64,000 nucleotides of DNA from Candidatus Omnitrophota bacterium (GCA_028865345.1 JAGWKL010000008.1:9291-73290); one strand, 5' to 3'; shown: positions 8,165-59,340, counted from the first letter of the stretch. Numbers and translations: made by a program. The notes: generated from the sequence alone by a model not told the origin.

Positions 8165-8318
8165 AATTTATTTGTAAGTCCATATTTTATATATAGTTGT
8201 AATGTATTGTGGTTTTGCCCCTTGTATCTTGTCATGAGACGTGTTATCTTTTCTTTATTCAGGTAAGCGTTTTCTTTGGCCGGATCAGCCGGCACTCACA
8301 GTTGTTCCTCCGGGCGCT

Positions 8319-11300
8319 ATGTTCAAAAGACCGTTAAGTCTGCTCATTATTTTTGCTTTTGTTTTAACATCCATAGGCCCTCTTTGCCCTGTTCCATGCT
8401 CTGCAGCAGTGGATGGATTAGGCCTGCCGGCGCCTGGGACCATGGTCAATTTAAGCCCGGCCTACCAACCGGTCATCATCAGAGGTTTGACCGTCCATAA
8501 AGACAACCCTTTCTTGTTCGACTTTATCGTGGATACCGGCCAGGATCACATGTCCGGAGAGCCTTTGAAAAAAGAAGGCGAAAAGCTCATCAAGTATTTT
8601 TTAGCCTCCCTGAGCATCCCTGACAAAGACGTATGGGTCAACCTCTCACCTTATGAGAAAGACAAGATCATTCCTGAAGTTTTAGGCCGGACGGGTATGG
8701 GCCGCGACCTTCTGGAGGAGGACTATATCCTAAAGCAGGTCACAGCTTCTCTCATTTATCCGGAGAGGCAATTAGGCAAGACCTTCTGGGACACGGTGTA
8801 TGCCAAGGCCCGGGCTATGTACGGCACAACGCAGATACCGGTCAATACCTTTAACAAGGTCTGGATCATGGCAGACAGGGCGCAGGTTTATGAGCATGGG
8901 CAAACCGCCTTTGTGGTGGATAGTCATTTAAAGGTGATGCTGCAAGAGGATTACCTGGCCCTGAAAAATCACGAAGGAGCGGTCGCGCATCCCCAAGGGG
9001 CGAAGCAATCACATTCCCTTGTCTCTCAAATTGTCCGTCAAATCATCCTTCCCCAACTTGAAAAAGAAGTCAATACCGGCAAGAACTTCGCTAAGCTTAG
9101 ACAAATATTCAATTCCATCATCCTGGCCAACTGGTACAAGAGGAATTTAAAGCAGGCGCTTCTCAACCAGGTATATGCCGATAAAGGGAAGGTCAAAGGC
9201 ATAAATTTAAACGATCCCAACGTCAAGGAACGGATTTATGAGCAATACCTGAAAGCCTACAAAAAGGGGGTCTTCAATTATATTCAGGAGGACATTAACG
9301 CCTCCGATGGTGCAAAGATACCAAGAAAATATTTTTCAGGAGGTATCAATGAGGGCATGGCTGCTGATCCTGCCATAACCCATGATGCGGCGGCTTTGGC
9401 CGCATCCTTGCCCCGCAGGACCATGGTTGATTTTATGACTGAAGCTTCCCCCTATACGGATAGGGCCATGAGTCATCGGAATGCTGTAAAGACCAAAACG
9501 GATTACAGGACAAAAAAGGATTTGGAGTACCCGTCGATCGAAGATCAGATAAACATAATAGCGGGGGTCAGAAGGTCTGTTATGGAACATCCTCCTGTTA
9601 AAGGGCAAAATTCAAAATACAGAATCCGCATCCTGAGCGCCCAATTCCTTGAGAAAAAAAGTGAGACGGGCTATTTGGAAAGTTTATACAGGTCCCCCGC
9701 ACTGGAGCAATTAAGGGAAAAAGGATACGCATTGAAAAAGGACGACAACGGGCTTTATCTGGAACGTAAGATTATTTCCCGGGAAGATCTATTGCGTATT
9801 TTCGCAGGGGTCTTGGGGAAATTACGGAGGGATTATTGGAAGGATGTCGTGCCCTTATATGGGCAGGGCAAGCTGTCTGAGAAAGATGTCCGCAGGGTTT
9901 CTTATCCGTCGGCCGGCATGGGATTGATTAAAGATGCCGGTGCTGTTTTTGATAACGGCAGGCTCTTGACATCCGGCCGGGATATTCAACAAGTTATTGG
10001 TAAAAATGCTTTTGTGCTTTGGCCGGCGGACGGTCAGAAAAATCTTTCATTTGCACTGGTCTTTACCGGCCGGGGCGGGGCGGTTCTTGACGCGGCGAGG
10101 GCATCTAAACCCGATGCCGCCATGACCGGCAGGGGCAAAAAGACCCATCCTCTCTATTTGAAAGTGCAGTCTTTATTTTCACAACCGCTTCAATTTGCCG
10201 ATGCGGTGGCCCGCGTCCCCGGGAAAAATGGAGGGGATGAAATCCGTATTAAACGCGAAAGTCCGGGCAGTTATCTTGTTCAACGGACCCTGCTTCCCGG
10301 CCCCGTACGCATAGAAAACAGCCAGGATAAGAATTTTTCTTTTAACTTTGCAATACGGGGTGGCCAATTCGTTATAGCTACCAACGCCATGGCCCCGGAT
10401 AGCGTGAAGTTTGTTTTTGAGCAAAAGAAACTGGAATGGGGGCCGGATCAATCCGTCAAAGAGGAAGTAACGACTAAAAAAAGAGAAATAAGAAATCTCA
10501 GCCTTAATCACTTTAACAGGCTGGGCGGCCTTTCCAATGGAGAGAGGATAGAAATTAATTTCGGCTACTACACACAGAAAATAGTTTTGACCTACAGGGA
10601 TGGGAGTCTGTTTTTGGAAAAGCCCTTTGAGTTGTCATCGAGGAATTCGATTTCTTTTGAGAGAAAAGACGGGACATATATATTGCGGGCTTCGGCGCAT
10701 TCGCATTTTGATCAGGCGAACATCAAAATTTATGCTGATACGGAATTTTCTTACAGGCCGATGCTTCCGGGCGGGCAAGCCGACCGGGCGATGACAAGCG
10801 CTCAAAAAAGGGTCGAAAGCAGTTTGCAGGACTTGATCGGGGAGGGTTTAGGGGTCATACACCCGGAAATCCTGGGCATTCTATCCATACCGGCCGTTTT
10901 AAAGGGGGGGAAAATAAGGGATGTGGAAAGCATTTTTGTTCATTTGAGGCAATTTGTTCCGATAACCCAGGAAGGTAAAATGTGGAACTCCACATTAAAT
11001 GACGAAGAGGCTGCTTTTTTAACTTGGGCGGTGATGATCAGAGACCAAACTAAAATTGAGAAGCTCTTAAGAAATTTTTATGGCAAATTCTCTTTAGGAT
11101 TGAATAGAAGAATATACCGTAGCGAAGCCGTTTTTTTGACCGTGGCTGCGGCGATCAGGGGCGGGGATGACGCTGCCGGTGAGGTGGAAAATGATTTTGA
11201 ACGGTTTGTGACTCCGGTGGAGAAAGGCGGGTATGGGCTGAAAGGACATTTTGCAAGTCTATTGACGATCGCGGCGCAATTGATGGAAAGAAAAGATATT

Positions 11301-11789
11301 CAGCGGCTCATGGATGTTTATGATTATTGGCATGTGAAAAAACAACAGGGACCGGAAGTGGCGGCGGTGTTGTCCATGGCGACGGTGAGTAAGGGGGCGG
11401 ATATTGAAAATGGGGAACATGAGATTAAAGGCGACTTTAAATTTAAGAAGAAATTAAGTTTGGACGGCAGGGAAGTGGAGCTTAATGAAAAAGCCCGTTC
11501 CTTTCTTGCCCTTGCCTGCGCCTTGGCCGATACCTCCGACGCGGCGATGACGGGGGCCCCTTTCGTTCCTGCCATGGCCGCCCAAAATCCCGGCGGTATC
11601 GATTTGAGCACCTCCGGCGGCATGCAGTGGAAAATCCGCAAGGATGGAGCCGGCGTCGAAATGAACATCGACCCTGCCATGGCGGCACGGATACGGGCGC
11701 GCGGCATCGACGGGCTTTCGCCGGTTATTTTCAAGATCACGCCGGTTACCGACGTCTGGGTGCTGGCCGGCTTGAAAGCCCCCGCCTGA
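8319..11789 (+). CDS. Giant secreted protein A (about 1156 aa mature). Unassigned family; paralog of the protein at 55660-59340.
   Basis: Signal peptide MFKRPLSLLIIFAFVLTSIGPLCPVPCSAA. About 330 aa after it align with paralog B (PGxMVNLSP, KYFLASLxIPD, VNLSPYEK, MGRDLLExDYILKQ, VNTFNKVWI, SHLKVMLxEDYLxLK, KKGVFNYIxED, IPRKYFxGG). The ORF stays open back to a GTG at 8241, but the ATG at 8319 starts the signal peptide. Confidence 0.7.
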   Translation: MFKRPLSLLIIFAFVLTSIGPLCPVPCSAAVDGLGLPAPGTMVNLSPAYQPVIIRGLTVHKDNPFLFDFIVDTGQDHMSGEPLKKEGEKLIKYFLASLSIPDKDVWVNLSPYEKDKIIPEVLGRTGMGRDLLEEDYILKQVTASLIYPERQLGKTFWDTVYAKARAMYGTTQIPVNTFNKVWIMADRAQVYEHGQTAFVVDSHLKVMLQEDYLALKNHEGAVAHPQGAKQSHSLVSQIVRQIILPQLEKEVNTGKNFAKLRQIFNSIILANWYKRNLKQALLNQVYADKGKVKGINLNDPNVKERIYEQYLKAYKKGVFNYIQEDINASDGAKIPRKYFSGGINEGMAADPAITHDAAALAASLPRRTMVDFMTEASPYTDRAMSHRNAVKTKTDYRTKKDLEYPSIEDQINIIAGVRRSVMEHPPVKGQNSKYRIRILSAQFLEKKSETGYLESLYRSPALEQLREKGYALKKDDNGLYLERKIISREDLLRIFAGVLGKLRRDYWKDVVPLYGQGKLSEKDVRRVSYPSAGMGLIKDAGAVFDNGRLLTSGRDIQQVIGKNAFVLWPADGQKNLSFALVFTGRGGAVLDAARASKPDAAMTGRGKKTHPLYLKVQSLFSQPLQFADAVARVPGKNGGDEIRIKRESPGSYLVQRTLLPGPVRIENSQDKNFSFNFAIRGGQFVIATNAMAPDSVKFVFEQKKLEWGPDQSVKEEVTTKKREIRNLSLNHFNRLGGLSNGERIEINFGYYTQKIVLTYRDGSLFLEKPFELSSRNSISFERKDGTYILRASAHSHFDQANIKIYADTEFSYRPMLPGGQADRAMTSAQKRVESSLQDLIGEGLGVIHPEILGILSIPAVLKGGKIRDVESIFVHLRQFVPITQEGKMWNSTLNDEEAAFLTWAVMIRDQTKIEKLLRNFYGKFSLGLNRRIYRSEAVFLTVAAAIRGGDDAAGEVENDFERFVTPVEKGGYGLKGHFASLLTIAAQLMERKDIQRLMDVYDYWHVKKQQGPEVAAVLSMATVSKGADIENGEHEIKGDFKFKKKLSLDGREVELNEKARSFLALACALADTSDAAMTGAPFVPAMAAQNPGGIDLSTSGGMQWKIRKDGAGVEMNIDPAMAARIRARGIDGLSPVIFKITPVTDVWVLAGLKAPA

Positions 11790-11908: not shown

Positions 11909-12397
11909 ATGAAAAATCTGGTGCTGGTCGTGGTGGCGGTATTTGTACTGACAACGTTTATCGGCTGCAACAAAAAGAAAGAGCAAGAAGCTTTTGACAA
12001 CGGGGTTTCCACGGAAAATTCAGTTTCTGTTTCTGACAATTCCGCTCAAAATGTTGATATGAGCAACTCTATTCCTGTCGTCGTTGAAAATTCATCGGCC
12101 GCTTCCCAGGAGGTCAGCGAGCCTGCCATGGCCCCCAGTTCCGCGACGGGCACGGCCAGGCCCTCCAACAGTAAACAAATCCAGCAGGCCTTGAAAAACG
12201 CCGGCTTTTACAGCGGCGCCATCGATGGCAAGATCGGGCCGATGACCAAAAGGGCCGTCGAAGCTTTTCAGAAAAAGAACGGTTTGAAAGCCGACGGCAA
12301 GGTCGGTCCGAAAACATGGCAGGTTCTGTCCGGTTATTTAAATAAGGATGCGGAGGTGCCTAATCCTTCCGCCGAGAGTCAGGCCGTCGCGCAGTAA
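11909..12397 (+). CDS. Lipoprotein with a C-terminal peptidoglycan-binding (PG_binding_1-like) domain.
   Basis: Lipobox TTFIGC. C-terminal IQQALKNAGFYSGAIDGKIGPMTKRAVEAFQKKNGLKADGKVGPKTW matches the PG-binding repeat. Confidence 0.7.
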   Translation: MKNLVLVVVAVFVLTTFIGCNKKKEQEAFDNGVSTENSVSVSDNSAQNVDMSNSIPVVVENSSAASQEVSEPAMAPSSATGTARPSNSKQIQQALKNAGFYSGAIDGKIGPMTKRAVEAFQKKNGLKADGKVGPKTWQVLSGYLNKDAEVPNPSAESQAVAQ

Positions 12398-26027: not shown

Positions 26028-26070
26028 ACGGGCACTTTTATTTTAAATAAAGGTGCCCGTTTCCTTTTTT
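26028..26070. terminator. Bidirectional intrinsic terminator between the convergent small secreted gene and sulfite reductase.
   Basis: ACGGGCAC / GTGCCCGT stem with an AT-rich loop. T-tract on the + side (TTCCTTTTTT) and a weaker one on the - side. Confidence 0.6.
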
Positions 26071-27892
26071 AATCGATAACGCAGTCTGCCGGCAGTGTTT
26101 TGGCCATCAGATCGGCCGTGGCAGGATTTTCTTTGAGATGGGAAATGATGGCTTCCATGCCGATACGGCGGTGAAAATACCCGACGCTTTCATCAAGACG
26201 GGCATGGGCCTTCCAGTTTTTAAGCAGCGCATCGATGATCTGGGCCACGCGTTCGCGGGGGATGGATTTAAGATAGATGCCGCTGCCGTCGGCAGAAACC
26301 AGGGGCAGGCCCTGATGGCGGGCGTCTTCGCTGCCCATCAATTTCAACTGGTAGCGATTAAACCCTGATCCCACCAGGCCGAAGGTTTTGGTGGCAGGCC
26401 TGAAGCACTGGCGCTCACAACCGGTGATCCCGATAGACTCTTTCAAATCGCCCCAGCCCATGGCTTCCAGTTGGTCGATCAATTCCGGTTCAAATCTTTC
26501 AGAGTCCGTATAGGTCAACCGGCAGGTGTCCCTGCCCACACAGGCGCCGGACAACAGGCGCAGGGTGGAATAGGGCCTGCCGTGACGCTCTCCGTACCCG
26601 AATTTTTTAAGGTCTGCTTCAAACGCGGATTTCATCTCTTCAGGCAAATTGATGAACAAGGCGTCCTGGTTGGGGGTGATCATGAACTGAACAGGATAGG
26701 TGTTCATCAAATGGCGGCACAAAGTCTTCAACGGGCCGTTGGGAGACCCGTCGATAATGCGGCCGTTTTCAATATACATACCGTAAGCCCACAGGCCGTT
26801 GGAGGGTTGTTTGGTCCAGCCATGGTGCATATGGCGGCATCCGGGGTCGAGATCAGGGATGGGCAACTCCAATTTCACCCCCAGGATTTTCTCCACCTCT
26901 TCGCGGTACCAGGCGATGCCCATTTTCTTGACCACGAATTTGACCCTTGCCCAGACGCGGTTTTCCCGGTCGCCCCAGTGCTGGTGCACCTTGACAACAG
27001 CATCCAGGGTCTTTAATAGATCCGCTTCATTCACCTGGGCCAGCGGCCGGCTGAAGCAGGCCATGGAAGGCTTGCCGTTGCGTTCGCCTTGCCCGCCGCC
27101 GACGTAAATTTGGAATTTGACTACCTTATTGTCTTTAATGACGGGCACAACGCCGGCATCATCACTCAATACTTCCGCGCAGTTGTCAGGGACCAGATTC
27201 CCCCGGGCGTCCTTGTGCACGGTGGCAAAACCGATCTTGAATTTACGGTTGAGCAGATTCTTGCCGTAAGCAAACGATTCTCCGGGCTTGCGGACCTTGG
27301 AGGGGTCAATTTGCCAAACGGAAATAAAAGGCTCCATGGGAAGCTGAAAATAAGCGCCGCATTTGCGTGCCAAGGCATTGGTGTCGATGACATCTGAAAA
27401 ATGGTCCAGCGGGCAGCCCATGACATTGCGGGTATTGTCCCCGCAGCCGTTGAGCGTGTTCAGCCCTGATTCAGCCAGGGCTTTCACAAGGAGTGCCACA
27501 TGCTGTTTTCTGATCCAGTGAAACTGGATGTTCTGGCGGTTGGTCAGGCGTATGGAGGGGCGGCCATCCGGGTTTTTGGTGTATTTTTCGGTCAGCTCGT
27601 CGATGATATTGTATTGTTCCCTGGTCAGGGGGCCGCCGCCGGGGATGCTGATACGCATCATAAAGATCCATTCCTTGTTGCCGGCGGCTTCTTTATTGCG
27701 GTTGAATTCAAGATAAATGCCGTGGGATTTGGCCACCTGCTCGGTTTCCCAGGCCACATCGTCCCTGCTCAAATCGGCGAAATCGGAGCGCAGGTTGCCG
27801 ATGATGGAGTTGGCCGCGATCTTATTGAGTTCCTCTTTGGAGAACTTTTCAGGCGGCGTATTGAAGTTGGGGGTGCATGGTTTACGGTTCAT
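26069..27892 (-). CDS. sir: Assimilatory sulfite reductase hemoprotein (siroheme/[4Fe-4S], NirA/CysI family).
   Basis: Two nitrite/sulfite reductase ferredoxin-like half-domains. Cluster and siroheme cysteines (SGACVGRDTCRL...GITGCERQC). ATG giving MNRKP... is preferred; the ORF remains open to a TTG at 27943. Confidence 0.85.
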   Translation of the reverse strand: MNRKPCTPNFNTPPEKFSKEELNKIAANSIIGNLRSDFADLSRDDVAWETEQVAKSHGIYLEFNRNKEAAGNKEWIFMMRISIPGGGPLTREQYNIIDELTEKYTKNPDGRPSIRLTNRQNIQFHWIRKQHVALLVKALAESGLNTLNGCGDNTRNVMGCPLDHFSDVIDTNALARKCGAYFQLPMEPFISVWQIDPSKVRKPGESFAYGKNLLNRKFKIGFATVHKDARGNLVPDNCAEVLSDDAGVVPVIKDNKVVKFQIYVGGGQGERNGKPSMACFSRPLAQVNEADLLKTLDAVVKVHQHWGDRENRVWARVKFVVKKMGIAWYREEVEKILGVKLELPIPDLDPGCRHMHHGWTKQPSNGLWAYGMYIENGRIIDGSPNGPLKTLCRHLMNTYPVQFMITPNQDALFINLPEEMKSAFEADLKKFGYGERHGRPYSTLRLLSGACVGRDTCRLTYTDSERFEPELIDQLEAMGWGDLKESIGITGCERQCFRPATKTFGLVGSGFNRYQLKLMGSEDARHQGLPLVSADGSGIYLKSIPRERVAQIIDALLKNWKAHARLDESVGYFHRRIGMEAIISHLKENPATADLMAKTLPADCVID

Positions 27893-28012
27893 AGGAACGC
27901 TTATTTTAACTGAATACCGACGAAAGTCAATATAACTGTGCAATTATGGAAGGTCTATTTGGTTTAGGAAAAAGTGCCCCCTTTTTATTTTTTATGATAA
28001 GATGAATTTCCA

Positions 28013-31630: not shown

Positions 31631-31639
31631 GAGTTGCCT

Positions 31640-33700
31640 GTGAAAAACCTCGACCGCGCATTTAATCCAAAACGCGTTGCCGTTATAGGTGCATCATCTG
31701 ATCCTTCCAAAATCGGCCATCAAGTGATCAAGAATATCATCGAAGGCGGATATCAAGGGGAAATCATCCCTGTTAATCCCAAGGCCGATGTCATTCTTGG
31801 TGTTAAGGCCTATAAATCCCTCAATGATGTTCCCGAAGGGGTGGACCTGGTCATCATTGCCATCCCCGCGCCTTTGGTGGTCGGCGCCATGGAAGAGTGC
31901 GCGAGGCGCAAGGTGGGCGCGGTTGCCGTCATCACCTCCGGATTCGCCGAAGTGGGCAAGACACAGGAAGAGTTGAAATTAAAAAAGATCGCCGATGATC
32001 ACGATATCGCCCTTTTTGGGCCCAATATTTTCGGCCTGGCTTACCCGCCCGAAAAATTAAACGCCAGCTTCGGTCCCAAGGACATTTACCCCGGTAAAAT
32101 CGCCTTTATCACCCAAAGCGGGGCGTTGGGGATCGGCCTCATGGGCTGGACAGCGATGAAAAAGATCGGTCTGGCGGCCCTGGTGAGTATCGGCAACAAA
32201 GCGGACATTGATGAAACGGATTTGATTGAATATTTTAATAAGGACGAAAATGTCAATGTGCAGTTGCTCTATATGGAGGGGGTCAAGAATGGCCCCAAAT
32301 TCCTGCAAACCAAGATCGAAAAACCGACGGTTGTCCTTAAAGTAGGCCGTTCCACCCGCGGGGCCCAGGCCGCGGCGTCCCATACAGGATCTTTATCGGG
32401 GTCGGACAAAATATACGACGGGGCATTTAAACAGATAGGGCTGCTTAGGGCCTCGACCTTTATTGAGGCATTCAGCTGGGCCCGCGCCCTGTCCCAACCG
32501 TTGCCCAAGGGCGAAGACACGCTCATTATCACCAACGGCGGCGGCATCGGGGTGGCCACCACCGACGAGTGTGAGGCCCAGGGCATTAAGATCTTGGATG
32601 ATCCCGCCTGGCTTGAGGCAAAATTCCGCCCCACCATGCCGGATTACGGCAGCACGAAGAATCCCATTGACGTCACCGGCGGCGCCGGGGTTGACGGTTA
32701 CCGCAAGGCCCTGAAAATTGCTTTTGCTGAAGACAGGGTCAAATCCATCATCGTTCTTTATTGTGAAACAGCCGTCACCGACCCCATGGACATTGCCGTG
32801 GCCGTCAATGAGGCTTTTGAAGGTGCCGGACGCAATAAGCCGGTCGTCGTGGCCATGGTCGGGGGAGAACGCACCCGCGAAGCTCTGGTGTATTTGAACG
32901 AGAAACTTATCCCGGCATCCAGCCTGGTCGACATATCCGTCTCCGCGCTTGCGATCATTTATTCATGGGCGCAAATCAAGGCCCGCGGGAGGTCCAGGTT
33001 GGTTTTGGAGAAACCTCCGGCCCAGGTCAACAAAATCATGGACGCGGCACAGGCCCAAGGCAGAAAAATTCTTATGGAGCATGAGGCCCGCCAGGTCATG
33101 GAACTGTGCGGGGTCCCGACGCCTAAATGGGGCTTTGCCCGAAGCGGCGATGAGGCCGTCAGGATCGCCGAGAGCAAACAAATGTATCCTTTGGCCATGA
33201 AGATCGCTTCCCCGGATATCGTGCATAAATCCGATGTGGGGGGTGTCGTGCTCAACATCCGCGACGGGAAGGAATTAAAAGACCGTTATGAAGCCATGAT
33301 GGCCAGGATCAAGAAAGACTGCCCGAAGGCCGATTTACAGGGCGTTAATCTCATCCAAATGGTCAGCGGCATCGAATGCATTGTGGGCATCAGCACAGAC
33401 CCTCAATTCGGGCCGGCGGTGATGTTCGGCTTAGGCGGGGTGTTTGTGGAGGCGCTTAAAGACGTCACCTTCCGGGTGGTGCCGTTTGATGCCGATGAGG
33501 CCGGACGGATGATCTCAGAGATCAAGGCCAAAAAGATATTAGACGGTTTTCGGGGGATGAAAGCCCACAAGGATTCGATCATCAAGACCCTGGTGGCCGT
33601 GCAAAAGCTCTCCCCCTTGGTCAAAGAGATCGACATTAATCCTTTGTTGACCAATCACAACGGTTCTTATGCCGTAGATGCGAGGATCGTATTAAAATGA
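31640..33700 (+). CDS. Acetyl-CoA synthetase (ADP-forming), fused alpha/beta.
   Basis: N-terminal CoA-binding plus succinyl-CoA-synthetase-like domains (VAVIGASSDPSKIGH; phospho-His region GAQAAASHTGSLSG) and a C-terminal ATP-grasp. GTG at 31640 is chosen for SD spacing; the track's TTG at 31634 is also possible. Confidence 0.85.
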   Translation: MKNLDRAFNPKRVAVIGASSDPSKIGHQVIKNIIEGGYQGEIIPVNPKADVILGVKAYKSLNDVPEGVDLVIIAIPAPLVVGAMEECARRKVGAVAVITSGFAEVGKTQEELKLKKIADDHDIALFGPNIFGLAYPPEKLNASFGPKDIYPGKIAFITQSGALGIGLMGWTAMKKIGLAALVSIGNKADIDETDLIEYFNKDENVNVQLLYMEGVKNGPKFLQTKIEKPTVVLKVGRSTRGAQAAASHTGSLSGSDKIYDGAFKQIGLLRASTFIEAFSWARALSQPLPKGEDTLIITNGGGIGVATTDECEAQGIKILDDPAWLEAKFRPTMPDYGSTKNPIDVTGGAGVDGYRKALKIAFAEDRVKSIIVLYCETAVTDPMDIAVAVNEAFEGAGRNKPVVVAMVGGERTREALVYLNEKLIPASSLVDISVSALAIIYSWAQIKARGRSRLVLEKPPAQVNKIMDAAQAQGRKILMEHEARQVMELCGVPTPKWGFARSGDEAVRIAESKQMYPLAMKIASPDIVHKSDVGGVVLNIRDGKELKDRYEAMMARIKKDCPKADLQGVNLIQMVSGIECIVGISTDPQFGPAVMFGLGGVFVEALKDVTFRVVPFDADEAGRMISEIKAKKILDGFRGMKAHKDSIIKTLVAVQKLSPLVKEIDINPLLTNHNGSYAVDARIVLK

Positions 33701-34227: not shown

Positions 34228-34740
34228 ATGAAACAAAAGAAATCGATCCTTGACGAGAACCTTTCCAGGAACGACCCGCGCGTAAAACAAATTTTAGTGA
34301 AGATGAAAAAGGAAAATTACCGTCCGGACGCCCTGATTGAGATCCTGCACACGGCCCAAAACTCTTACGGGTATCTGCCCATGAGCGTCCTGGCGTTCAT
34401 CACCAAGGAATTAAAGGTCCCGCCCAGCCGGGTGTTTTCGACGGTCACCTTCTACCACTTTTTCTCGCTGAAATCCAAGGGCGAACACACCTGCCTGGTC
34501 TGCACAGGCACGGCCTGTTACGTTAAAGGCGCCGAACGGATCCTTTCCGAAATAGAAAAAGATTTCCACCTGAAGCCCGGGATGGTGACGAATGACAATA
34601 AATTGGGGCTCTCGACGGCCCGCTGCATCGGCGCCTGCGGCCTGGCGCCTGCCATGGTCGTCGATGATGAAGTCCACGCCAAAGTCAAGCCCGAAGACGT
34701 CAAAAACATGGTCCTTTCAAAAACCGGAGTCCGAGTATGA
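34228..34740 (+). CDS. hoxE: Bidirectional hydrogenase diaphorase subunit HoxE (NuoE-like 2Fe-2S).
   Basis: CxxxxC...CxxxC thioredoxin-like ferredoxin motif ([13 protein letters not shown]...CIGACGLAP). Confidence 0.9.
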
Positions 34741-36416
34741 ACCGCCAAGACTTAAAAACGATGGCTGATGCCGCCAAGGCCGAACATAACAAGTATAAGC
34801 ACAAAATATGCGTCTGTTGCGGGGCAGGCTGCATTTCTTCAGGTTCCGAAGCCGTGCTTAAGAAATTGCAGGAAGAGGTCAAGACCCGCGGCCTGGAAAA
34901 TGACGTCAGAGTTGTCCCTTCCGGATGCATGGGGCCCTGCAATCAGGGGCCATTGGTCAAGGTCATGCCGGAATACGCGATCTATCAGAAGGTCAATTGC
35001 GAAAATATTGCTGCGGTGGTGCAGAGCCAATTGATCGACAAGAAACCGATAGAGGATTTGTTGCTGTTTGCGGATTCCCGGCCCAAGCCGTTTGTGAATG
35101 CCCAGGAAGACCCGTTCTTTGAAAAGCAGTATAAAATTGTTTTGAAAGACTGCGGGTCCATCAATCCCGAAAACATCGAAGATTACATTGTACGCGACGG
35201 CTACAAGGCCTTGGACAAGGTCCTTTTCCAGATGTCATCGGAAGAAGTGATCGCGGAGATAAAGCACAGCCGTTTGCGCGGCCGCGGCGGCGCCGGTTTT
35301 CCGACGGGCATCAAATGGGAGACCGTGTATAAATATGTGGCTGACCAGAAATATGTCATTTGCAACGGGGATGAAGGCGACCCCGGCGCCTTCATGGACC
35401 GCAGCGTCCTGGAAGGCAACCCTCACCGCGTCCTGGAAGGCATGGCCATTGCGGGCTATGCGGTGGGAGCCAACAAAGGTTATGCCTACATCCGCGGCGA
35501 ATACCCTTTGGCCATCAAACGCTTTGAGGCCGCTATCAAGGCCGCCAAAAAGCTGGGTCTGTTAGGCCCTAATATATTAGGAAGCCCTTTTTCTTTTGAC
35601 ATTGAAATCCGCATCGGTGCCGGCGCCTTTGTCTGCGGGGAAGAAACGGCCCTCATCGCTTCCATCGAAGGCAAAAGGGGAACGCCGCGTCCCAGGCCGC
35701 CGTTTCCCGCGGAATCAGGCTTGTGGGGCAGGCCTACACTTATCAATAATGTGGAAACCCTGGCCAGCATAGCTCCCATCATCAACCGCGGGGGGGAATG
35801 GTACAGCGAGATCGGCACGCCCAAAAGCGCGGGGACCAAGGTCTTTGCCCTGGCCGGCAAGATCAACTATTCCGGTTTGATCGAAGTCCCCATGGGCATG
35901 ACCCTGCGTGAGATCGTTTTTGATATCGGAGGAGGGGTGCCGGGTGGGAAGCAATTCAAGGCTGCGCAAACCGGCGGACCGTCGGGCGGCTGTATTCCTA
36001 AAGAGCATTTGGACGTTAAAGTAGACTATGAATCTTTAGTCAGCCTTGGTTCCATCATGGGTTCGGGAGGGCTCATCATTATGGATGATTCCTCCGACAT
36101 GGTGGATGTGGCCCGGTTCTTCATGGAATTCTGCATGGATGAATCCTGCGGCAAATGCGTGCCTTGCCGGGTGGGCACCAAAATGATGTACGACCTTTTA
36201 AGCAAAATTTGTTCCGGTCAGGGCAGCTTAAAAGACATCGAGAAGTTGGAAGAATTGGCCGTCTATGTCAAGGAGGCCAGCCTTTGCGGGCTGGGGATGT
36301 CCGCCCCTAATCCGCTTTTGAGCACATTGAGATATTACAAAAATGAATACCTGGCCCATATTAAAGAAAACAAGGCGTTTGAGTTAAAGGCCGCCGGGGA
36401 GGTCTCTCATGGCTAA
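34737..36416 (+). CDS. hoxF: Diaphorase subunit HoxF (NuoF-like; NAD, FMN and 4Fe-4S binding).
   Basis: N-terminal 2Fe-2S domain. FMN/NADH site ([28 protein letters not shown]). 4Fe-4S site ([10 protein letters not shown]). Confidence 0.9.
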
Positions 36417-37116
36417 AATACCGCTTACGATCGATGGAAAACCCCTGGAAGTCGATACAGGCAAGACCATTCTCGAGGTCTGCAAGGAAAATAATATCGA
36501 GATCTTGACCATGTGCCATTTCGAAGGGATCGGGGACGTGGGCGCCTGCCGCCTGTGCCTGGTCGAGATCGAGGGGACAACCAAGCTGCTTCCGGCCTGC
36601 ACCACCAAGGTGGCCGCCAACCAGGTCATTAAAACCAATACCGAAAAATTAAAAAAATATCAAAAGATCACCACGGAACTGTTTTTCGCCGAACGCAATC
36701 ATATTTGCGCCGTCTGTGTGGCCGACGGCAATTGCGAGCTGCAGGATTTAGGATACAAGGTGGGCATGGACCATGTGCGCTTTCCTTATCTTTTTCCAAA
36801 AGCCGAAGTGGACACCTCCCATCCCTCGTATGTGATGGACCATAACCGCTGCATCATGTGCACCCGTTGCGTGCGGGTGTGTTCCGAGGTGGAAGGTGCC
36901 CATAACTGGGGCGTTAAAAACAGGGGGGTTGAAGTGAGGATCATTTCCGACTTTGACACCCCGTGGGGGGATTCCACGACATGCACCTCGTGCAGCAAAT
37001 GCGTCAATGTCTGCCCCACCGGCGCTTTGTGGCCCAAGGCGACGGTGCAGGGGCAATTGGTCAAAAACCCTAAGATGGTCTCAGAATTGGTGGCTAAAAG
37101 AAAGATGAACCTATGA
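36409..37116 (+). CDS. hoxU: Diaphorase subunit HoxU (NuoG N-terminal-like 2Fe-2S/4Fe-4S).
   Basis: 2Fe-2[16 protein letters not shown]. Multiple 4Fe-4S motifs ([23 protein letters not shown]). Confidence 0.9.
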
Positions 37117-37652
37117 AGAAGAAACTGGCAACGGTATGGCTGGGCGGGTGCTCGGGATGCCATATGTCGCTTTTGGATATCGATGAGCGCATCCTGGAGG
37201 TGGTCAAACTTGCGGACATCGTCAAATGCCCCATTGTCGACGGCAAGGAGTTTCCGCCGGTCGATATAGCTCTGGTGGAAGGCTCGGTGACCAGCGATGA
37301 GCATTTGCAGGAATTATTGCATATCCGCGAAGTGTCAAAGGTGCTCATCGCCCTGGGCGACTGCGCGGTGACGGCCAATGTCACGGGGATGCGCAATTAT
37401 TTGAAAAAAGAGGACGTGCTGGATCATGCGTATGTCAAGGCCGTCAGCAACGACCAGCAGGGCAAAATGCCGGGGCATCCGGCGCTGTTGAAACTGCGCG
37501 ATAAAGTGCTGCCCCTTCAGGAAGTCGTGCATGTCGACTATGCGATTCCCGGCTGCCCGCCGCCGGCAGACACCATTTTTTATGTGCTGGCCGAGCTTCT
37601 CAATGACCGCATACCCAATTTGGAGCAGGAAAGGAAGTTGAAATATGGATAG
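37113..37652 (+). CDS. hoxY: [NiFe] hydrogenase small subunit HoxY (group 3d).
   Basis: VWLGGCSGCHMSLLD proximal-cluster motif. GDCAVTANV. IPGCPP. Confidence 0.9.
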   Translation: MKKKLATVWLGGCSGCHMSLLDIDERILEVVKLADIVKCPIVDGKEFPPVDIALVEGSVTSDEHLQELLHIREVSKVLIALGDCAVTANVTGMRNYLKKEDVLDHAYVKAVSNDQQGKMPGHPALLKLRDKVLPLQEVVHVDYAIPGCPPPADTIFYVLAELLNDRIPNLEQERKLKYG

Positions 37653-39090
37653 CCAGATCAATAAAGACAATACCATACTCATTTCTCCGGTCACCCGCAT
37701 TGAAGGCCATGCCAAGATCACGATTGATTTGGGCCCCGATGGATCAGTCAAGGACGCCCGGTTTCACGTCAACGAGTTCCGCGGGTTCGAGAAATTCTGC
37801 GAAGGCCGCTATTTTACCGAAATGCCGACCATAACCCCGCGCATCTGCGGGATCTGCCCGGTCAGCCATTCGGTGTCAAGCGCCAAGGCCTGCGAGGCGA
37901 TCATGGGCATCAAACCCACCTATACCGGCGATTTGCTGCGCCGCCTCATTCATCTGGGCCAGGTGATATCTTCGCACGCGCTTTCGTTTTTCCACTTGTC
38001 TTCGCCGGATTTCATTTTAGGCTGGGACAGCGACCCTGCCGTGCGCAATATCGTGGGCCTGGCCCAACAGTCTCCGGATTTGGCGCTTCGGGGCATCCGC
38101 TTGCGCAAATTCGGCCAGGAGATCAGCGAACGCATCACCGGCAAGAAGATCCATATCATGGGCATTGTCCCCGGCGGAGTGGGCGCTCCTTTAAGCGAAG
38201 AAAACAGGAAAGCCCTGCTTGGCTGGATAGCAGAAGCGACCCAAACGACCCTGATGGGCATTGACCTTATCAAGAAATACCATGACCAGAACAAGGACAT
38301 GGTCAACAGTTTTGCCAATTTTCCGACCCTTTATTTAGGGACGGTCGGGCCCCAGGGCGAATGGGAGGTATACGACGGGAAATTACGGTTTATGGATGCC
38401 GACGGGAAAATTCTCGAAGACCAGATAGATCCTAAAAATTACCTTGATTACATCGCCGAGCGCGCCATTGACTGGTCTTATTTGAAATATCCCTATTATA
38501 AGCCTTATGGATTTGAAAAAGGGTTTTACAGGGTAGGCCCGCTGGCGCGCCTCAATGTGTCTTCCAAAATGAAAACGCCCAAGGCCCAAAAAGAATTCCT
38601 GAATTTTAAATCCATAGGCGCGGGCAAGCCGGTGCACGGCACTTTCTATTTCCATTACACGCGCCTGATCGAATGCTTAAGCGCCGTTGAAGAGGCCGAA
38701 CGCATCCTGAAAGACCCCAAGATCACCTCGGGCGATACCCAGACCGCGGGCAAACACAATTACAACGAAGGCATCGGTTCTTCCGAAGCGCCGCGCGGGA
38801 CTTTGTTCCATCATTATAAGACCGATGACAGCGGCAGGTTGACGAACGTCAATCTTTTGATCGCCACGGGCCAGAATAATCCGGCGATGAACCGTTCCGT
38901 TTTGGAGGTGGCCAAACAATACGTGCATGGCAAAAATGTCAAGGAAGGAGCGCTCAACAGGGTCGAAGCCGCCATCCGTTGTTACGACCCCTGCCTTTCA
39001 TGCTCCACGCATGCCATAGGGTCTATGCCGATGCTTATCGAGATCAAAGATCATTTGGGCCGCACTGTTCATGTCCTTAAAAGGGGATAG
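37645..39090 (+). CDS. hoxH: [NiFe] hydrogenase large subunit HoxH (group 3d).
   Basis: N-terminal [10 protein letters not shown] and C-terminal DPCLSCSTH Ni-Fe ligand motifs. A roughly 24-aa C-terminal extension follows for protease processing. Confidence 0.95.
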
Positions 39091-39544
39091 ACCCGCCAAT
39101 ATCCTGGTCGTCGGCATAGGCAATCCTTTGCGTTGCGACGACGGCGTAGGGCCATACATAGCCGGGTGTATTGAAACCAGGGGTTTAAGCGGCGTCCATG
39201 TCCGGACCGTCCAGCAATTGCTTCTGGAAGATCTTGAAGAAATGCTTCAGTACGATCAGGTCATCCTGGCCGACGCCTCCGTCTCAGGGCCGCCCGTGGA
39301 TTTCCGTCCGGTCGAGAAGTTTTCAGGGCAACTCCTTTCATCGTCGCACCATCTGTCAGCGGAATTGTTTGTCAATCTGGCCGCCGGTGTTTATCATAAA
39401 GACTTGAAGTTGCATCTCTGCTGTGTCAAAGGCCTTTCGTTTGAGGTGGGGGATAAGATATCGGACTTTGTCCTTCAGCGGGCCGGCGAGGCGGTTGATT
39501 TGATCGCAGGGTTTATCAACAATATGACAAAGGGTAAGGTTTAA
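39071..39544 (+). CDS. hoxW: Hydrogenase maturation endopeptidase (HoxW/HycI family).
   Basis: ILVVGIGNPLRCDDGVGPYIA. 157 aa. Confidence 0.85.
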   Translation: MSLKGDRPANILVVGIGNPLRCDDGVGPYIAGCIETRGLSGVHVRTVQQLLLEDLEEMLQYDQVILADASVSGPPVDFRPVEKFSGQLLSSSHHLSAELFVNLAAGVYHKDLKLHLCCVKGLSFEVGDKISDFVLQRAGEAVDLIAGFINNMTKGKV

Positions 39545-39546
39545 GA

Positions 39547-39894
39547 ATGCACGAGGGACATTTCACGGAAAATATCGTCAAGGCCATCATCGGAGAACTT
39601 AAAAAATACCCGGGCCGGGGGGTTGAGTCCGTCACCGTAAAGGTGGGCGAGACCTATCACCTGCTGCCGGATTCGGTATTGATGCATTATGATCTGTTGG
39701 CCAAAGGGACTGAATTGGAAGGGGTCAGGCTCGAGCTTTTGGAAGAGCCCATGTTGGTCGCCTGCAGCCAATGCGGCCGGCAGGGGCCTGTGGAAGACCA
39801 TCATCTTCCTTTGTGCTCTTTTTGCCATTCCCGTTTGGTCAAACCTGTGTCCGGAGAAAAAGTCACCATCGAACAGATTAAATTCAAGCCATGA
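39547..39894 (+). CDS. hypA: Hydrogenase nickel-insertion protein HypA.
   Basis: MHEGHF N-terminal Ni site. Zn site CSQCG...CSFCHS. Confidence 0.9.
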   Translation: MHEGHFTENIVKAIIGELKKYPGRGVESVTVKVGETYHLLPDSVLMHYDLLAKGTELEGVRLELLEEPMLVACSQCGRQGPVEDHHLPLCSFCHSRLVKPVSGEKVTIEQIKFKP

Positions 39895-55546: not shown

Positions 55547-55659
55547 AGTAGTCCCGCTGCGGCTTGACAAAGACTATTTTATATGGCACTCTTTACTTAG
55601 GATGTGGATGAAGGCGGGAGAGAGGTATGTCCCCATATACCCTGAATATTAAAAAATCT

Positions 55660-58600
55660 ATGTTTTTAAAGTTACGCAGGATCGTTTCTATTGTTATTAT
55701 ATCGGCTTTTATGACCACCTCGGTCAGGACGCCGGCCTGGGCGCAGTCCTCTGTAGGCCTGCTGCCCAATCTGCCGCCTCCGGGGGCGATGGTAAATTTA
55801 AGCCCCGATTTTACGCCTGCCCATCTGATGGGCATTACCATCCATCCCGATAACCCCTTAAAGTTTGATTTCTTGATCGATAATGGCGACCAGGAAATGG
55901 ACAGCGTCCAAAAGCGGGAGGAATATCAAAAACTGGTAAAGTATTTTTTGGCCTCCCTGACCATCCCCGATGGCCACCAGTGGGTGAACCTTTCGCCTTA
56001 TGAAAAGGGACGCATCATCCAGAATGATTTCGGCAAAACACAGATGGGCCGGGATTTGCTGGAGCAGGATTACATCCTCAAGCAGATCACCTCAAGTTTG
56101 ATCTATCCTGAAAGCCGTTTGGGCAAGGAATTCTGGGACAAGGTCTATCAACGCGCCTGGAATGAATACCACACGACCGACATCCCGGTCAATACCTTTA
56201 ACAAAGTATGGATCGTGCCTGACCAGGCCGTAGTTTACGAAAGCGGCGACAGCGCCTATATCCTCCAGAGCCATTTAAAGGTGATGCTGGAAGAAGACTA
56301 CCTCTCCCTGAAAGAACATACGGCCATTTCCTCTTCCGATGTCAATGCCGTTGCCAATGACACCCATGCCATCGGTTCCCAGGTGATCCGCGAGATCGTC
56401 CTTCCTGAACTTCAAAAAGAGGTCAATGAAGACAAGAATTTTGAAAGCCTGCGCCAGATGTACAGCGGGATGGTCCTGGCGACCTGGTATAAAATGGCAT
56501 TGAAGAAATCTCTCTTGGGGATGATTTACGCGGACAAGGCCAAGGTCAAGGGCGTTGACCAGGACCCCAGGACCAACCAATTAATATACAACCAGTATTT
56601 GCGCGCGTTTAAAAAGGGCGTGTTCAACTATATTAAGGAAGATGTGGACAAATTCACAAATGAGGAGATCCCCAGGAAATATTTTGCGGGCGGGTTTCAG
56701 CCCCTGGAGGGGGCTGATGAAATAAGAGATATAGGCCAGGCGCAACAGGCGGTTCAGGAGAGTAGAAGCAACCCGCTGCCCCGGGAGTTTGTCGTCAAAG
56801 CCAATCAGGGAGAGAATGTGGCGAATGTGGCGCCAACCATCAACACTCTTCTTGGAGGCCGGCCCATTTCTGTTGACTGGCAGAAGCCGGAGAATTTCAA
56901 TGTTGCCGTTGTTGATTTAAGCCAGGCAAACCAGAACCCCGGTGGAGTTTCCGGCAACGCCACGACTGTCGCGCAGAGTGAAGCGCAAAAATTTGTAAAC
57001 TTTATGCAGGAGAGGGAACTCCCGGTGCCGGCCAATCTGCCTGCAGACCAACTGGCCAGGGCCAAGCAGGGGGAAAAGAATTGGCAAATCAGCAATGCCA
57101 TGCGCCAGCAGCTGCAGCAATGGTACAAGGGCAATGATCAGTATGATCCCATGGTGGATTCCATTTTTAAGCATTTGGATTATGAATACGATCAGGCAAC
57201 GGACAATTTTAAGGTTGTCTATTCCAATCCGGCGATGACGTCCAACGGAGAAATAACTGACGCGACTTTTTCCAGAATTTCCCGCCGGTTGAACCAAAAC
57301 CCTGCTATCAGCCGGTTATTGGAGAATCCCATTACCCGGGATTTCTATGATAAGACACTTAATTCCAATTTGACCAATCCCGGGAAATTGCAGCGTATCC
57401 GTCAACGGTTGGATGATTTAAGGCCGGGTTTGGGGCAAACGGTGGATTCCATCGTTGCAGAGGTCCAGGCGGATCAAAGTGCGAACAGGGCGATGACCAC
57501 GGTCCTGGTCATTGATGATGATCCCGTGATGCTGGATATCAATAAAGCGGTATTGTCCCGTGCCGGTTATAATGTTTTAACCGCCCAGACCGAGCAGGAA
57601 GCTGAAACATCTTGGCAGGAGAATAAAGATAATATAGGCCTTATCCTTAGCGACACCCATAACACAGGGCAAAAGGATTGGCCTGATTTGGTGAAAGGAT
57701 TCGTGGCGCAGAAAAATGTCCCTGTTCTTGCCACCAGCGGGTTGGCAACCCAGCAAGCCTGGCAGGGGATCACCGATCATTTTCTTCCCAAGCCGTATTC
57801 CATTCATGTTTTAACCTCTGCAGTTCAGGGAATTTTGTCCGCCAATCAGCCTGCAGTTGATCAGGCCATGGCGTCAAATACCGGGAGTTGGTTGAAGGAG
57901 AAGATCTTGCCGCTGGTAGGAGCGGTTGCGGTAGGGGGCGTCGTTGCGGGGGCAATAAGCATGCCTTCCTATTTACATCAGCGGGAATTAAACAAGATCT
58001 CTTTGGTCCAACCCGGACAGATTGCGTCTATAAACAACCAGGCGGCAAGGGTCGTGGTCAATACCGGCGGAGTGGGTGTCGTCATTACCCAGCCGGGCAG
58101 GCCGATCAGGATCATCAGTGTCAATCCCAACAATGTTGCCGACGTTGCTCAGCAATTGTTGCAGGAATATCCGGCCGGCATCAATAATGCCGTTATCCAT
58201 GTTTTTGCCGATGGTGACGGTGAACGGGGAGCGGGCAATGCATTGTCGATGGCTTTGTTGGGTAAAGAGAATATCTCTGATCATCACATTTATCTTGAAC
58301 ATGCGGCGCCGTTTAATTTGGTGGCTCATCCCCTGGGCAGCGGAAGCGATTTTGTAAGGATTGAAAATGGGGACGGGATGGAGCATCATTATGTGGAGAC
58401 AAAGGGTGTTTTAATTCAGTTGCCCAAGAACAATCCCAACCCGGCCATGGCCTCCAACAGCAAAATAAATCGGATCAGAGAAAGGCTTGTGACGGCAGCC
58501 ACGCTGGCCGGCATCTCAGCGGCCGCGCTGTTTCTTGCTCCCGGGGCCGCAAAGAATGTCCAGATAGCCATCAAGGAACATAGAATTCCTTTGAAAAGCG

Positions 58601-59340
58601 GGATCCAAACCGGAGAGGGTGCGTATACGGTCAATGAAAATGAGGCGGCGGTCGCTTTTTCAGTTGAAGGTCAGCCCAATTTTGCTTATGCAGGCGTTGT
58701 AGGGACAAACGATTCTCAAGAAATACAGAACCTTACTAAAATAAAAACGGATTTACGGCAAAAATACCCCCACACCCAAATTTACATGGATTATTGGACC
58801 TATGGGCGGATGACTGAAGACGGAAGGTATATGCAGGATCACGCGGGCAATATCATAAGCAGCATACCGGCGGCCCCCGGCTTTGAGGTCCGGGTCCATC
58901 ATCTTCCCTTTGAACCGACGGAGCCCAGCGCTCCTCTTCCCTATGGATTTTACGTCAAGGGGCCGATCATTCATGTGGATACCCAAACCTTGGGCACCAC
59001 CGGCGGCTATTGGTATGCCAATAACACCGGGAACGGTTTGACGCATGCCCCGGCAGGTTATACGGATAATGCCATGGCGATCCGGCAACAAACGAACAGC
59101 GAGTCAGCGTTAATCGCCGAATCCCTGACTAAAAAAGGTGGTATCGACTTAAACGCCGCCAACCTGAATTTATTCATCAAACGCGACGGCAGCGGCGTGC
59201 CGCTGCCCTGGGCCCAGCAGGACATCTCCCTGTTTAAGAACATCCAGGGTTTTGTTCCCCAAATCGTCGAGATCCGGCCTGCCGTCGACATTTCCGTCAT
59301 CAACGAACTGCAACAGAAGCTGCAATCTTTCCAGAATTAA
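55660..59340 (+). CDS. Giant secreted/membrane protein B (about 1226 aa). Paralog of protein A, with an internal CheY-like receiver domain and two hydrophobic segments.
   Basis: Signal peptide MFLKLRRIVSIVIISAFMTTSVRTPAWA. About 330-aa N-domain colinear with protein A. Receiver-like segment at about 57495-57840 (TVLVIDDDP...GLILSD...LATSG...LPKPYS). Hydrophobic helices at about 57904-57966 and about 58500-58560. C-terminal GGIDL...KRDGSGV module. The ORF is open back to an ATG at 55627. Confidence 0.7.
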   Translation: MFLKLRRIVSIVIISAFMTTSVRTPAWAQSSVGLLPNLPPPGAMVNLSPDFTPAHLMGITIHPDNPLKFDFLIDNGDQEMDSVQKREEYQKLVKYFLASLTIPDGHQWVNLSPYEKGRIIQNDFGKTQMGRDLLEQDYILKQITSSLIYPESRLGKEFWDKVYQRAWNEYHTTDIPVNTFNKVWIVPDQAVVYESGDSAYILQSHLKVMLEEDYLSLKEHTAISSSDVNAVANDTHAIGSQVIREIVLPELQKEVNEDKNFESLRQMYSGMVLATWYKMALKKSLLGMIYADKAKVKGVDQDPRTNQLIYNQYLRAFKKGVFNYIKEDVDKFTNEEIPRKYFAGGFQPLEGADEIRDIGQAQQAVQESRSNPLPREFVVKANQGENVANVAPTINTLLGGRPISVDWQKPENFNVAVVDLSQANQNPGGVSGNATTVAQSEAQKFVNFMQERELPVPANLPADQLARAKQGEKNWQISNAMRQQLQQWYKGNDQYDPMVDSIFKHLDYEYDQATDNFKVVYSNPAMTSNGEITDATFSRISRRLNQNPAISRLLENPITRDFYDKTLNSNLTNPGKLQRIRQRLDDLRPGLGQTVDSIVAEVQADQSANRAMTTVLVIDDDPVMLDINKAVLSRAGYNVLTAQTEQEAETSWQENKDNIGLILSDTHNTGQKDWPDLVKGFVAQKNVPVLATSGLATQQAWQGITDHFLPKPYSIHVLTSAVQGILSANQPAVDQAMASNTGSWLKEKILPLVGAVAVGGVVAGAISMPSYLHQRELNKISLVQPGQIASINNQAARVVVNTGGVGVVITQPGRPIRIISVNPNNVADVAQQLLQEYPAGINNAVIHVFADGDGERGAGNALSMALLGKENISDHHIYLEHAAPFNLVAHPLGSGSDFVRIENGDGMEHHYVETKGVLIQLPKNNPNPAMASNSKINRIRERLVTAATLAGISAAALFLAPGAAKNVQIAIKEHRIPLKSGIQTGEGAYTVNENEAAVAFSVEGQPNFAYAGVVGTNDSQEIQNLTKIKTDLRQKYPHTQIYMDYWTYGRMTEDGRYMQDHAGNIISSIPAAPGFEVRVHHLPFEPTEPSAPLPYGFYVKGPIIHVDTQTLGTTGGYWYANNTGNGLTHAPAGYTDNAMAIRQQTNSESALIAESLTKKGGIDLNAANLNLFIKRDGSGVPLPWAQQDISLFKNIQGFVPQIVEIRPAVDISVINELQQKLQSFQN

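Follow-up and report, generated by a model that had tools for sequence, protein, structure and literature searches.

The 64,000-nucleotide stretch of a Candidatus Omnitrophota genome analysed here (the window, from whose first letter all coordinates are counted) encodes two large proteins, A (8319..11789) and B (55627..59340), whose variable middle parts carry a short motif, [DN]-x-A-M, at the boundaries between modules. Both belong to a family with a common layout, shared by A, B and thousands of relatives: a Sec-type signal peptide, a conserved head of about 315 amino acids (aa), a variable middle and a C-terminal tail of about 65 aa marked by GGIDL. The junction mark occurs in two dialects and is selected at the level of the protein, and heads and tails are coupled. 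From this we infer a reader acting in trans, cleavage at the junctions and a role for the tail. The reading that we tentatively prefer is that the motif may be a recognition site, probably for cleavage, for a factor encoded in the genome, which would make these proteins polyprotein-like. The Omnitrophota, noted for their very long proteins, have not been brought into culture; many are ultra-small, and they may live as predators or parasites.

The original prediction had described a reiterated [DN]-x-A-M-[TA]-[STG] motif in A and B, and every string that it quoted was found in the two proteins. The strict form occurs three times in A and four times in B against 0.006 occurrences expected per protein, counts that none of 5000 shuffles reached, so the motif is indeed more frequent than composition would give. 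The core [DN]xAM was found ten times in A and B together and four times in the 18,464 aa of the other open reading frames (ORFs) of the window; the middle regions alone hold 4 DxAM sites in A and 5-6 in B. In the middles of 177 relatives it was observed 626 times, while 35 occurrences were expected; this amounts to 3.5 sites per protein, spaced a median of 154 aa apart. Long ORFs of these loci that fall outside the family contained 0.32 sites per 1000 aa and the family ORFs, heads included, about 2 per 1000.

An unbiased k-mer analysis of the middles of the 177 members (149,502 aa) returned AM as the most enriched dipeptide, AMT and AAM as the tripeptides and DAAM as the tetrapeptide (175 occurrences against 1.65 expected, 106-fold). 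The A and the M of the motif are irreplaceable, with 17.8-fold enrichment and every substitute near 1-fold, and position -3 is occupied by D (23-fold), N (11-fold) or S (3.4-fold). The residue x is mostly A, P or R, position -4 prefers P, A, S or T, position +1 prefers T, A, S or V and position +2 is small; beyond these positions the flanks are unconserved. The predicted core is thus real, but the residue after the methionine is a mere preference (T>A>S>V). Chance or composition as the source of the motif was ruled out by the shuffles and the k-mer statistics.

The sites mark the borders of homology and of domains. BLAST comparison of all middles with one another gave blocks of which 39% started and 40% ended no more than 10 residues from a site; with randomised sites the figure was 10-12%. 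Sites bracket a receiver domain in B (623 and 748) and in the relative P0026 (381 and 513) as well as a transaldolase in P0049 (734 and 1173), and in P0286 a GAPDH directly follows the site at 429. In proteins using [DN]xAM (the D dialect), the median distance is 14 aa both from the head to the first site and from the last site to GGIDL; in two-thirds of these proteins the last site ends within 30 residues of GGIDL. The original prediction had placed the motif at apparent module boundaries and proposed a domain-linker signature of a modular family; the BLAST block ends and the Pfam domain brackets agree with this. Alignments and profiles of the relatives likewise confirmed that the motif and the GGIDL tail are conserved across the family.

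The ORF of protein A opens with GTG at 8241, and the probable start was placed at M27 (8319) because a protein from a metagenome-assembled genome (MAG) in the NCBI database (P0001, KGJ61_04995, Candidatus Omnitrophica, 1156 aa), 99% identical to A, starts there. So delimited, A is a plus-strand, 1156-aa, Type I member of the family. Its predicted Sec-type signal peptide (MFKRPLSLLIIFAFVLTSIGPLCPVPCSAA, with V as the next residue; 8319..8408) was recognised by its basic residues, hydrophobic core and AxA, a pattern of n-region, h-region and AxA that the relatives repeat. The head, delimited by similarity to B and the relatives, occupies 8409..9344 and ends in RKYFSGG. It is followed by a degenerate first junction, DPAI (9366..9377), at the place where the family consensus is NPAMT; here the two near-identical genomes differ by a single residue, A having DPAIT and P0001 DPAMT. 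The motif scan then gives DRAM (residues 407-410, 9459..9470), DAAM (625-628, 10113..10124), DRAM (848-851, 10782..10793) and the last junction DAAM (1100-1103, 11538..11549), 15 residues before the tail. The type I tail (GGIDLSTSGGMQWKIRKDGAGVEMNIDPAMAARIRARGIDGLSPVIFKITPVTDVWVLAGLKAPA; 11592..11786), which matches the family profile and belongs to tail cluster 1, itself contains DPAM (11670-11681). Pfam and NCBIfam gave no match anywhere in A.

Protein B is encoded on the same strand, has 1237 aa and combines a divergent head cluster with a type II tail. A putative signal peptide (ending in RRIVSIVIISAFMTTSVRTPAWA before Q; 55627..55743) precedes the head (55744..56694), which was again delimited by similarity, to A and the relatives. 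After a weaker junction, SNAM (57091-57102), the scan found NPAM (residues 534-537, 57226..57237) and NRAM (620-623, 57484..57495), the latter three residues ahead of the first strand (MTTVLVIDDD) of a response-regulator receiver module (626-733, 57502..57825). Next come DQAM (745-748, 57859..57870), followed by a signal-anchor-like hydrophobic stretch (57904-57957), NPAM (938-941, 58438..58449), followed by a second such stretch (58486-58551), and finally DNAM (1147-1150, 59065..59076), 21 residues before the type II tail (GGIDLNAANLNLFIKRDGSGVPLPWAQQDISLFKNIQGFVPQIVEIRPAVDISVINEL...; 59137..59337; family profile, tail cluster 4). The receiver is the only match of B in Pfam or NCBIfam. It matches PF00072 with an E-value of 2.2e-7 and 31.5 bits (cut-off 30.2) over profile positions 1-110 of 111, and NCBIfam as well; to judge by its residues, it seemingly keeps the catalytic DD pair, the Asp in LILSD, the TSG and the Lys in LPKP. 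With the Sec signal before it and two transmembrane (TM)-like segments after it, the receiver would come to lie outside the cytoplasm in a single-chain topology.

Some details of the original prediction had to be corrected. The proteins, which it called giant, are large, about 1200 aa; the last site, which it put 20-35 residues before the C-terminal block, stands 15 (A) and 21 (B) residues from GGIDL; and its region, beginning at 10150, leaves the first A site that it listed (10113) just upstream. To the A sites that it quoted we add DRAMS (407-411) and the DPAM inside the tail, and to its features the role of the shared 315-aa head, the signal peptides, the restriction to Omnitrophota and an alternative junction, SSP[VILM].

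This second dialect was found in members without any DxAM, in which SSP[VILM] recurs instead. A search seeded with one of these members, L044, returned 120 further relatives, and SSPV (56x), ASSP and SSPI were the top 4-mers of their middles; the extended consensus is [PA]-[AS]-S-S-P-[VILM] and the median spacing is 180 aa. The marks are mutually exclusive: DxAM is present three or more times in 128 proteins and SSP[VILM] in 32, and no protein reaches this count for both (Fisher 1.8e-10, Spearman -0.50). The positions are the same. In P0350, UDPGP, PGI, PGM and PGK each sit in their own SSP-delimited block, and P0291 holds a full PGI within an SSP-delimited block (783-1368). The strings SSPIKKILVVDD and SSPINKILLVDD lead into receiver domains in the manner of NRAMTTVLVIDDD in B, while AQSSPLGGINLNP abuts the tail, SSP standing 0-7 aa before it.

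The S dialect is confined to one head cluster, which also holds DxAM proteins (31 S, 20 D). The paralogs P0273 and P0289, on the same contig, share the SSP mark at 67% identity of their heads, yet P0273 is closer, with 71% identity, to a DxAM protein; P0323 and P0380 show the same pattern. A and B in the window have heads 58% identical and fall in different head and tail clusters, and both use DxAM. In these few comparable cases the sequences point to a dialect that follows the genome and not the head or tail subtype. As same-contig paralogs share a dialect despite distant heads, the determinant would lie at the level of the genome, i.e., in a reader acting in trans; head columns that separate the dialects, as a reader in cis might leave, were not found. 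The original prediction had treated the motif and the tail as one determinant, which found no support, since the dialect varies independently of tail type.

At the DNA level the sites of A and B have only GCS-ATG in common, and their synonymous codons differ. Wobble positions of DxAM are near background, the codon of x is free, and the serines of SSP are written with both TCN and AGY codons within single genes. The free synonymous codons and the two kinds of serine codon show that selection acts on the peptide. They also largely refute an origin of the motif in DNA recombination, in which it would be the trace left in the protein by a joint that serves to shuffle module cassettes between paralogs. 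Homology blocks do end at the motif, paralogs are numerous and often in tandem, heads and tails are coupled while middles differ, and dialects are common within a genome, all of which such a joint would explain; but no more than about 8 nucleotides are conserved and flanking repeats are absent, and we consider this origin very improbable.

Equally improbable, in our view, is that the methionine is an internal or vestigial translation start, the modules being captured genes that kept their start codon or are translated separately. The invariant methionine speaks for it, as do the T, A or S that often follow, as at real N-termini, and the modules that open like pre-proteins (MTTVLVIDDD in B; elsewhere M, basic residues and a hydrophobic stretch). 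As a general explanation it is insufficient, because the SSP[VILM] dialect has no methionine at the equivalent positions; a Shine-Dalgarno-like sequence precedes only 15 of 222 sites, in a GC-rich context, V, L and I are also frequent after the M, and the conserved upstream D/N-x-A plays no part in initiation.

The tail is as regular as the motif. Nearly every complete member has GG[IV]D[LFM] a single time, at a distance of 55-105 residues from its end. When the tail profile was run in a word-index search, short fragments alone came back, and the informative search was an exhaustive one, in which 400 of 3023 representative clusters matched at E<=1e-10; in each of the best 150 of the 3023 the tail was one stretch only, which stopped no more than a few residues short of the C-terminus. 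Tandem GGIDLN repeats were not seen in these 150. Two types are distinguished, type I as in A (GGIDLNTSNGMQWKVSKDGKGVEMNIDPAMIERIRREGIDSLSPVIFRITPVTSIWPLVGLQAP) and type II as in B (GGIDLNPALLNLQIKRDGNGVPLPLPQQP...GFLPVIINITPV.NLPLLLG). The AlphaFold2 model of the tail (alignment of 59 sequences) is mostly coil, with one helix starting exactly at DPAM and a predicted template modelling score (pTM) of 0.29, which indicates that the tail is not an autonomous fold. Coupling between head cluster and tail cluster is perfect (127/127 and 104/104), and the head and tail distances correlate (Spearman 0.66), while the middles are shuffled. Between A and B the N-terminal regions are 53% identical over 352 aa, and the C-terminal blocks (about 60 aa) are 33% identical (E 5e-4) and match one family profile, whereas the middles are unrelated by sequence comparison.

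Both dialects resemble segments of the tail: DPAM occurs in type I tails (e.g., within 11670-11732 of the window), and the conserved SLSPVI resembles SSPV/I. This resemblance, possibly a coincidence, hints that junction marks and tail might be read by the same partner. Short tail-only ORFs were also seen on long contigs beside tail-less long members with frameshifted-looking ends, P0126, P0130 and P0168 being further cases, and P0129 (126 aa) and P0096 (1358 aa), a tail-only ORF and a long member, are apparently on one contig, since 238,333 nucleotides is given as the longest contig for each; the tail-only ORFs may be pseudogenes, sequencing frameshifts or genuinely split genes.

A conserved, single-copy, strictly C-terminal element is what one would expect of a known class of C-terminal sorting signal, i.e., LPXTG, PEP-CTERM, GlyGly-CTERM, the C-terminal domain of the type IX secretion system (T9SS), a type I secretion system (T1SS) signal or an autotransporter barrel, but we find membership in any of these extremely unlikely. 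The tail has no Pfam or NCBIfam match at E<=1, and A (ending in VWVLAGLKAPA) and B (ending in QQKLQSFQN) have neither an LPXTG or PEP motif nor a terminal TM helix followed by a basic tail. The LPXTG motif, hydrophobic segment and basic tail of sortase substrates are thus absent from both, and the missing NCBIfam match and terminal TM helix likewise separate the tail from signals of the exosortase and rhombosortase type (PEP-CTERM, GlyGly-CTERM), in which a signature motif is followed by a TM helix and an Arg-rich tail. The T9SS domain is a beta-sandwich of about 80-100 aa (PF18962/TIGR04183), for which A and B gave no Pfam or NCBIfam match, and 65 aa of mostly coil make neither such a sandwich nor a barrel. 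Against T1SS stands the N-terminal Sec signal, which its substrates lack; compared with repeats-in-toxin (RTX) proteins, including the multifunctional-autoprocessing RTX (MARTX) toxins, A and B have one GG only, where those proteins carry GGxGxD nonapeptide repeats and an uncleaved C-terminal signal, and no Pfam match to RTX or to the cysteine protease domain (CPD). The original prediction, which had matched the motif and the tail to no sorting signal, is upheld here, the head also having no Pfam or NCBIfam match. One relative, P0388, has a precomputed match to PF18962, unlike A, B and the other listed members.

The search with A returned more than 3373 significant proteins, each matching the first ~30% of A, and the named ones all come from Candidatus Omnitrophica/Omnitrophota. 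Scanning species-representative genomes gave at least 592 loci, and every one of these was in a MAG with the label Omnitrophota or in a third-party annotation bin named 'uncultured Planctomycetales'. There are several paralogs per genome, and several MAGs had 5-6 among the best 80 matches alone. Tandem arrays occur, with a second family member about 50 nucleotides downstream in 17 of 80 loci (e.g., L072).

The heads of A and B are 55-78% identical to those of 36 relatives (60-78% for A), with about 80 invariant columns and, after the signal peptide, the blocks WVNLSPYE, NTFNKVWI and RKYFSGG. Neither Pfam nor NCBIfam recognised it (about 315-350 aa), and a profile search of the PDB sequences returned low-complexity noise only. 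Its AlphaFold2 model (38 sequences) is mixed alpha/beta, with two beta hairpins and long helices (predicted local distance difference test 72.8, pTM 0.76), and Foldseek found nothing significant for it in PDB or BFVD. The best PDB matches were components of ClyA-family pore-forming toxins (NheA, MakB, AhlB and SmhA) with E-values of 0.4-3 and TM-scores of about 0.15, which is a lead only and not evidence.

The middles carry whole enzymes, identified with Pfam: ADK, enolase, PGK, PGI, TPI, GAPDH, FBA, PGM/PMM, UDPGP, hexokinase, transaldolase, GDH, ICL with malate synthase, PPDK and glycogen synthase, besides ACP, receiver, HTH and GGDEF modules; membrane-anchored segments and many uncharacterised modules occur as well. 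The PGI embedded in P0291 matches its full profile (E 2.6e-189) and an embedded PGK reaches 1e-90. Complete enzymes of central metabolism stand behind a Sec signal in P0291, P0350, P0286, P0352, P0094 and P0043. Several modules, two of them in B, open with M, a basic stretch and a hydrophobic segment; internal hydrophobic segments starting 0-20 aa after a junction numbered 18 of 85, while 7.3 were expected (P<2e-4), and resemble N-terminal signal anchors. The longest relative in this set has 3,549 aa.

Taken as steps, the preferred reading runs as follows. The short linear motif [DN]-x-A-M, or in some genomes [AS]-S-S-P-[VILM] at the same positions, would stand at every boundary: where the head ends, from one module to the next and shortly ahead of the tail. 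A factor whose gene lies elsewhere in the genome, most probably an endopeptidase, would read it there. What each gene encodes would then be a polyprotein, from which the head, every module and the tail are cut free; the tail would most likely bind the head, or a partner common to both, in sorting or assembly. A mark of four residues that is sharp, has unconserved flanks, stands at boundaries and is specific to lineages has the pattern of a polyprotein protease code. Moreover, domains of cytoplasmic type (the receiver; full PGI, PGK and ADK) behind one Sec signal are awkward for a single chain and simple to accommodate if the modules are separated. The fuller claim, that these are true cellular polyproteins, is one about which we are more doubtful: each genome would hold dozens of chromosomal genes for a signal-bearing carrier head, ordinary proteins (glycolytic and glycogen enzymes, kinases, response regulators, membrane proteins) and a tail, and a dedicated protease would cut the products by a genome-specific code.

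The chain may instead stay in one piece, the junction being an uncleaved short linear motif, either a docking site (for head, tail, a chaperone or a secretion or assembly factor) or a cap that lets neighbouring modules fold independently of each other. We hold this to be possible, if doubtful. The order D>N>S at -3 followed by P or A fits the preferences of helix N-caps, DPAM starts the sole confident helix of the type I tail model, SSPV resembles the conserved SLSPVI of the tail, and the flanks are not linker-like; related long multi-enzyme proteins of Omnitrophota have also been treated as single membrane-anchored chains (bioRxiv 10.64898/2026.06.07.730766). A purely structural cap, on the other hand, needs neither an invariant methionine nor genome-wide, mutually exclusive dialects, and a motif in B sits three residues before a beta strand, not a helix. 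An uncleaved chain would also leave unexplained the ATP-dependent and phospho-relay domains and the internal signal-anchor-like segments behind one Sec signal.

Several observations weigh against cleavage by a dedicated reader. As the conserved DPAM of type I tails starts a predicted helix, the motif looks structural or binding there rather than scissile, and the surroundings of the sites do not have a linker-like composition. In about a quarter of the members (69 of 270), neither mark occurs more than once. The link between genome and dialect comes from a few same-contig pairs and is confounded by the phylogeny of the organisms and by possible module exchange within genomes. Foldseek and the PDB profile search revealed no recognisable protease fold or motif in the head. 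The co-occurring dedicated peptidase or sortase that the original prediction had proposed to look for was not linked to the genes either: Pfam scans of 20 flanking and larger ORFs of the window found housekeeping functions only, and no peptidase or sortase recurred in the flanks of 80 related loci. Cleavage at the junctions by a putative protease is thus a plausible and preferred, though tentative, reading.

Several kinds of known proteins are comparable. MARTX toxins have conserved N- and C-terminal regions and a variable central array of effectors; a cysteine protease domain within the toxin cuts between the domains and sets the effectors free. The family shares with them the conserved ends, a shuffled central array of self-contained modules with short sites between them and many variants per lineage; it differs in having no RTX repeats or CPD, in its Sec signal in place of T1SS, in its modules, which are mostly housekeeping-type enzymes and regulators and not toxins, and in that no embedded protease was found and cleavage is inferred only. 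Viral polyproteins (e.g., those with 3C-like Q|G sites) also have a short, sharp consensus at the junctions of unrelated domains, unconserved flanks and lineage-specific codes, whereas the genes described here are chromosomal, bacterial and multi-copy, with a conserved head and tail, no recognised protease domain in cis and putative processing. Polyvalent proteins of phages and conjugative elements are strings of unrelated enzymatic domains, often with embedded peptidases, thought to be processed after delivery. By this description they resemble the family in stringing unrelated enzymatic domains in one polypeptide; the genes studied here, however, lie on an ordinary chromosome and not on mobile elements, and their products bring a Sec signal, the head and tail peculiar to the family and a definite motif at the junctions.

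The window is indeed an ordinary piece of chromosome, with genes for transhydrogenase, alanine dehydrogenase, QueH, URO-D, a HemN-like protein, NiFe hydrogenase, HypF, sulfite reductase and acetyl-CoA synthetases. On the strand of protein A and 120 nucleotides downstream of it, a 162-aa protein (11909-12397) has a PG_binding_1 peptidoglycan-binding domain (E 3.7e-21). The hydrogenase cluster (34228-42170) comprises a Nuo51-like FMN subunit, the NiFe hydrogenase large subunit and HypF; near it lie a sulfite/nitrite reductase-like gene (26069-27943, minus strand) and the ADP-forming and AMP-forming acetyl-CoA synthetases (31634-33700 and 45865-47811, respectively). In the 80 related loci the only recurrent neighbours are other family members and generic PAS sensors.

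Long proteins of the phylum have been discussed before. A 2023 preprint on giant Omnitrophota genes asks whether their products are cleaved, and states that the lack of cleavage points kept these from being split for analysis (bioRxiv 10.1101/2023.11.21.568195); giant ORFs are also discussed in Seymour et al. 2023, and the 2026 preprint describes long Omnitrophota proteins of a 'multi-enzyme metabolic cluster' with a signal peptide and TM helices. These come from the same phylum as the family and share with it the signal peptide, the internal TM segments, tiled enzymes of sugar metabolism, PGM/PMM, starch synthase and receivers; the published proteins measure at least 10,000-30,000 aa, compared with about 1,200 aa for A and B. 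Polyproteins, motifs at junctions, and the head and tail described here go unmentioned in all three publications. The string 'GGIDL' occurs in no relevant paper, and the searchable literature holds no prior description of the motif, the tail or Omnitrophota polyproteins, so the motif, the second dialect and the head/tail architecture appear to be undescribed there.

For the question whether the long proteins of Omnitrophota work as a single chain or as cut pieces, a sharply defined, family-wide mark with two genome-specific dialects gives concrete candidate cut points. The mark also offers structure prediction a practical way of dividing these proteins into modules. Annotations such as PGI, PGK and TPI sit inside signal-bearing multi-module proteins, some members of 1,900-2,800 aa being named at NCBI just 'glucose-6-phosphate isomerase', 'phosphoglycerate kinase' or 'triose-phosphate isomerase', and these annotations could mislead metabolic reconstructions. 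If the proteins are true cellular polyproteins, this would be a gene organisation and a mode of protein sorting without bacterial precedent, and it may extend to the giants of the phylum, with their 10,000-147,000 aa.

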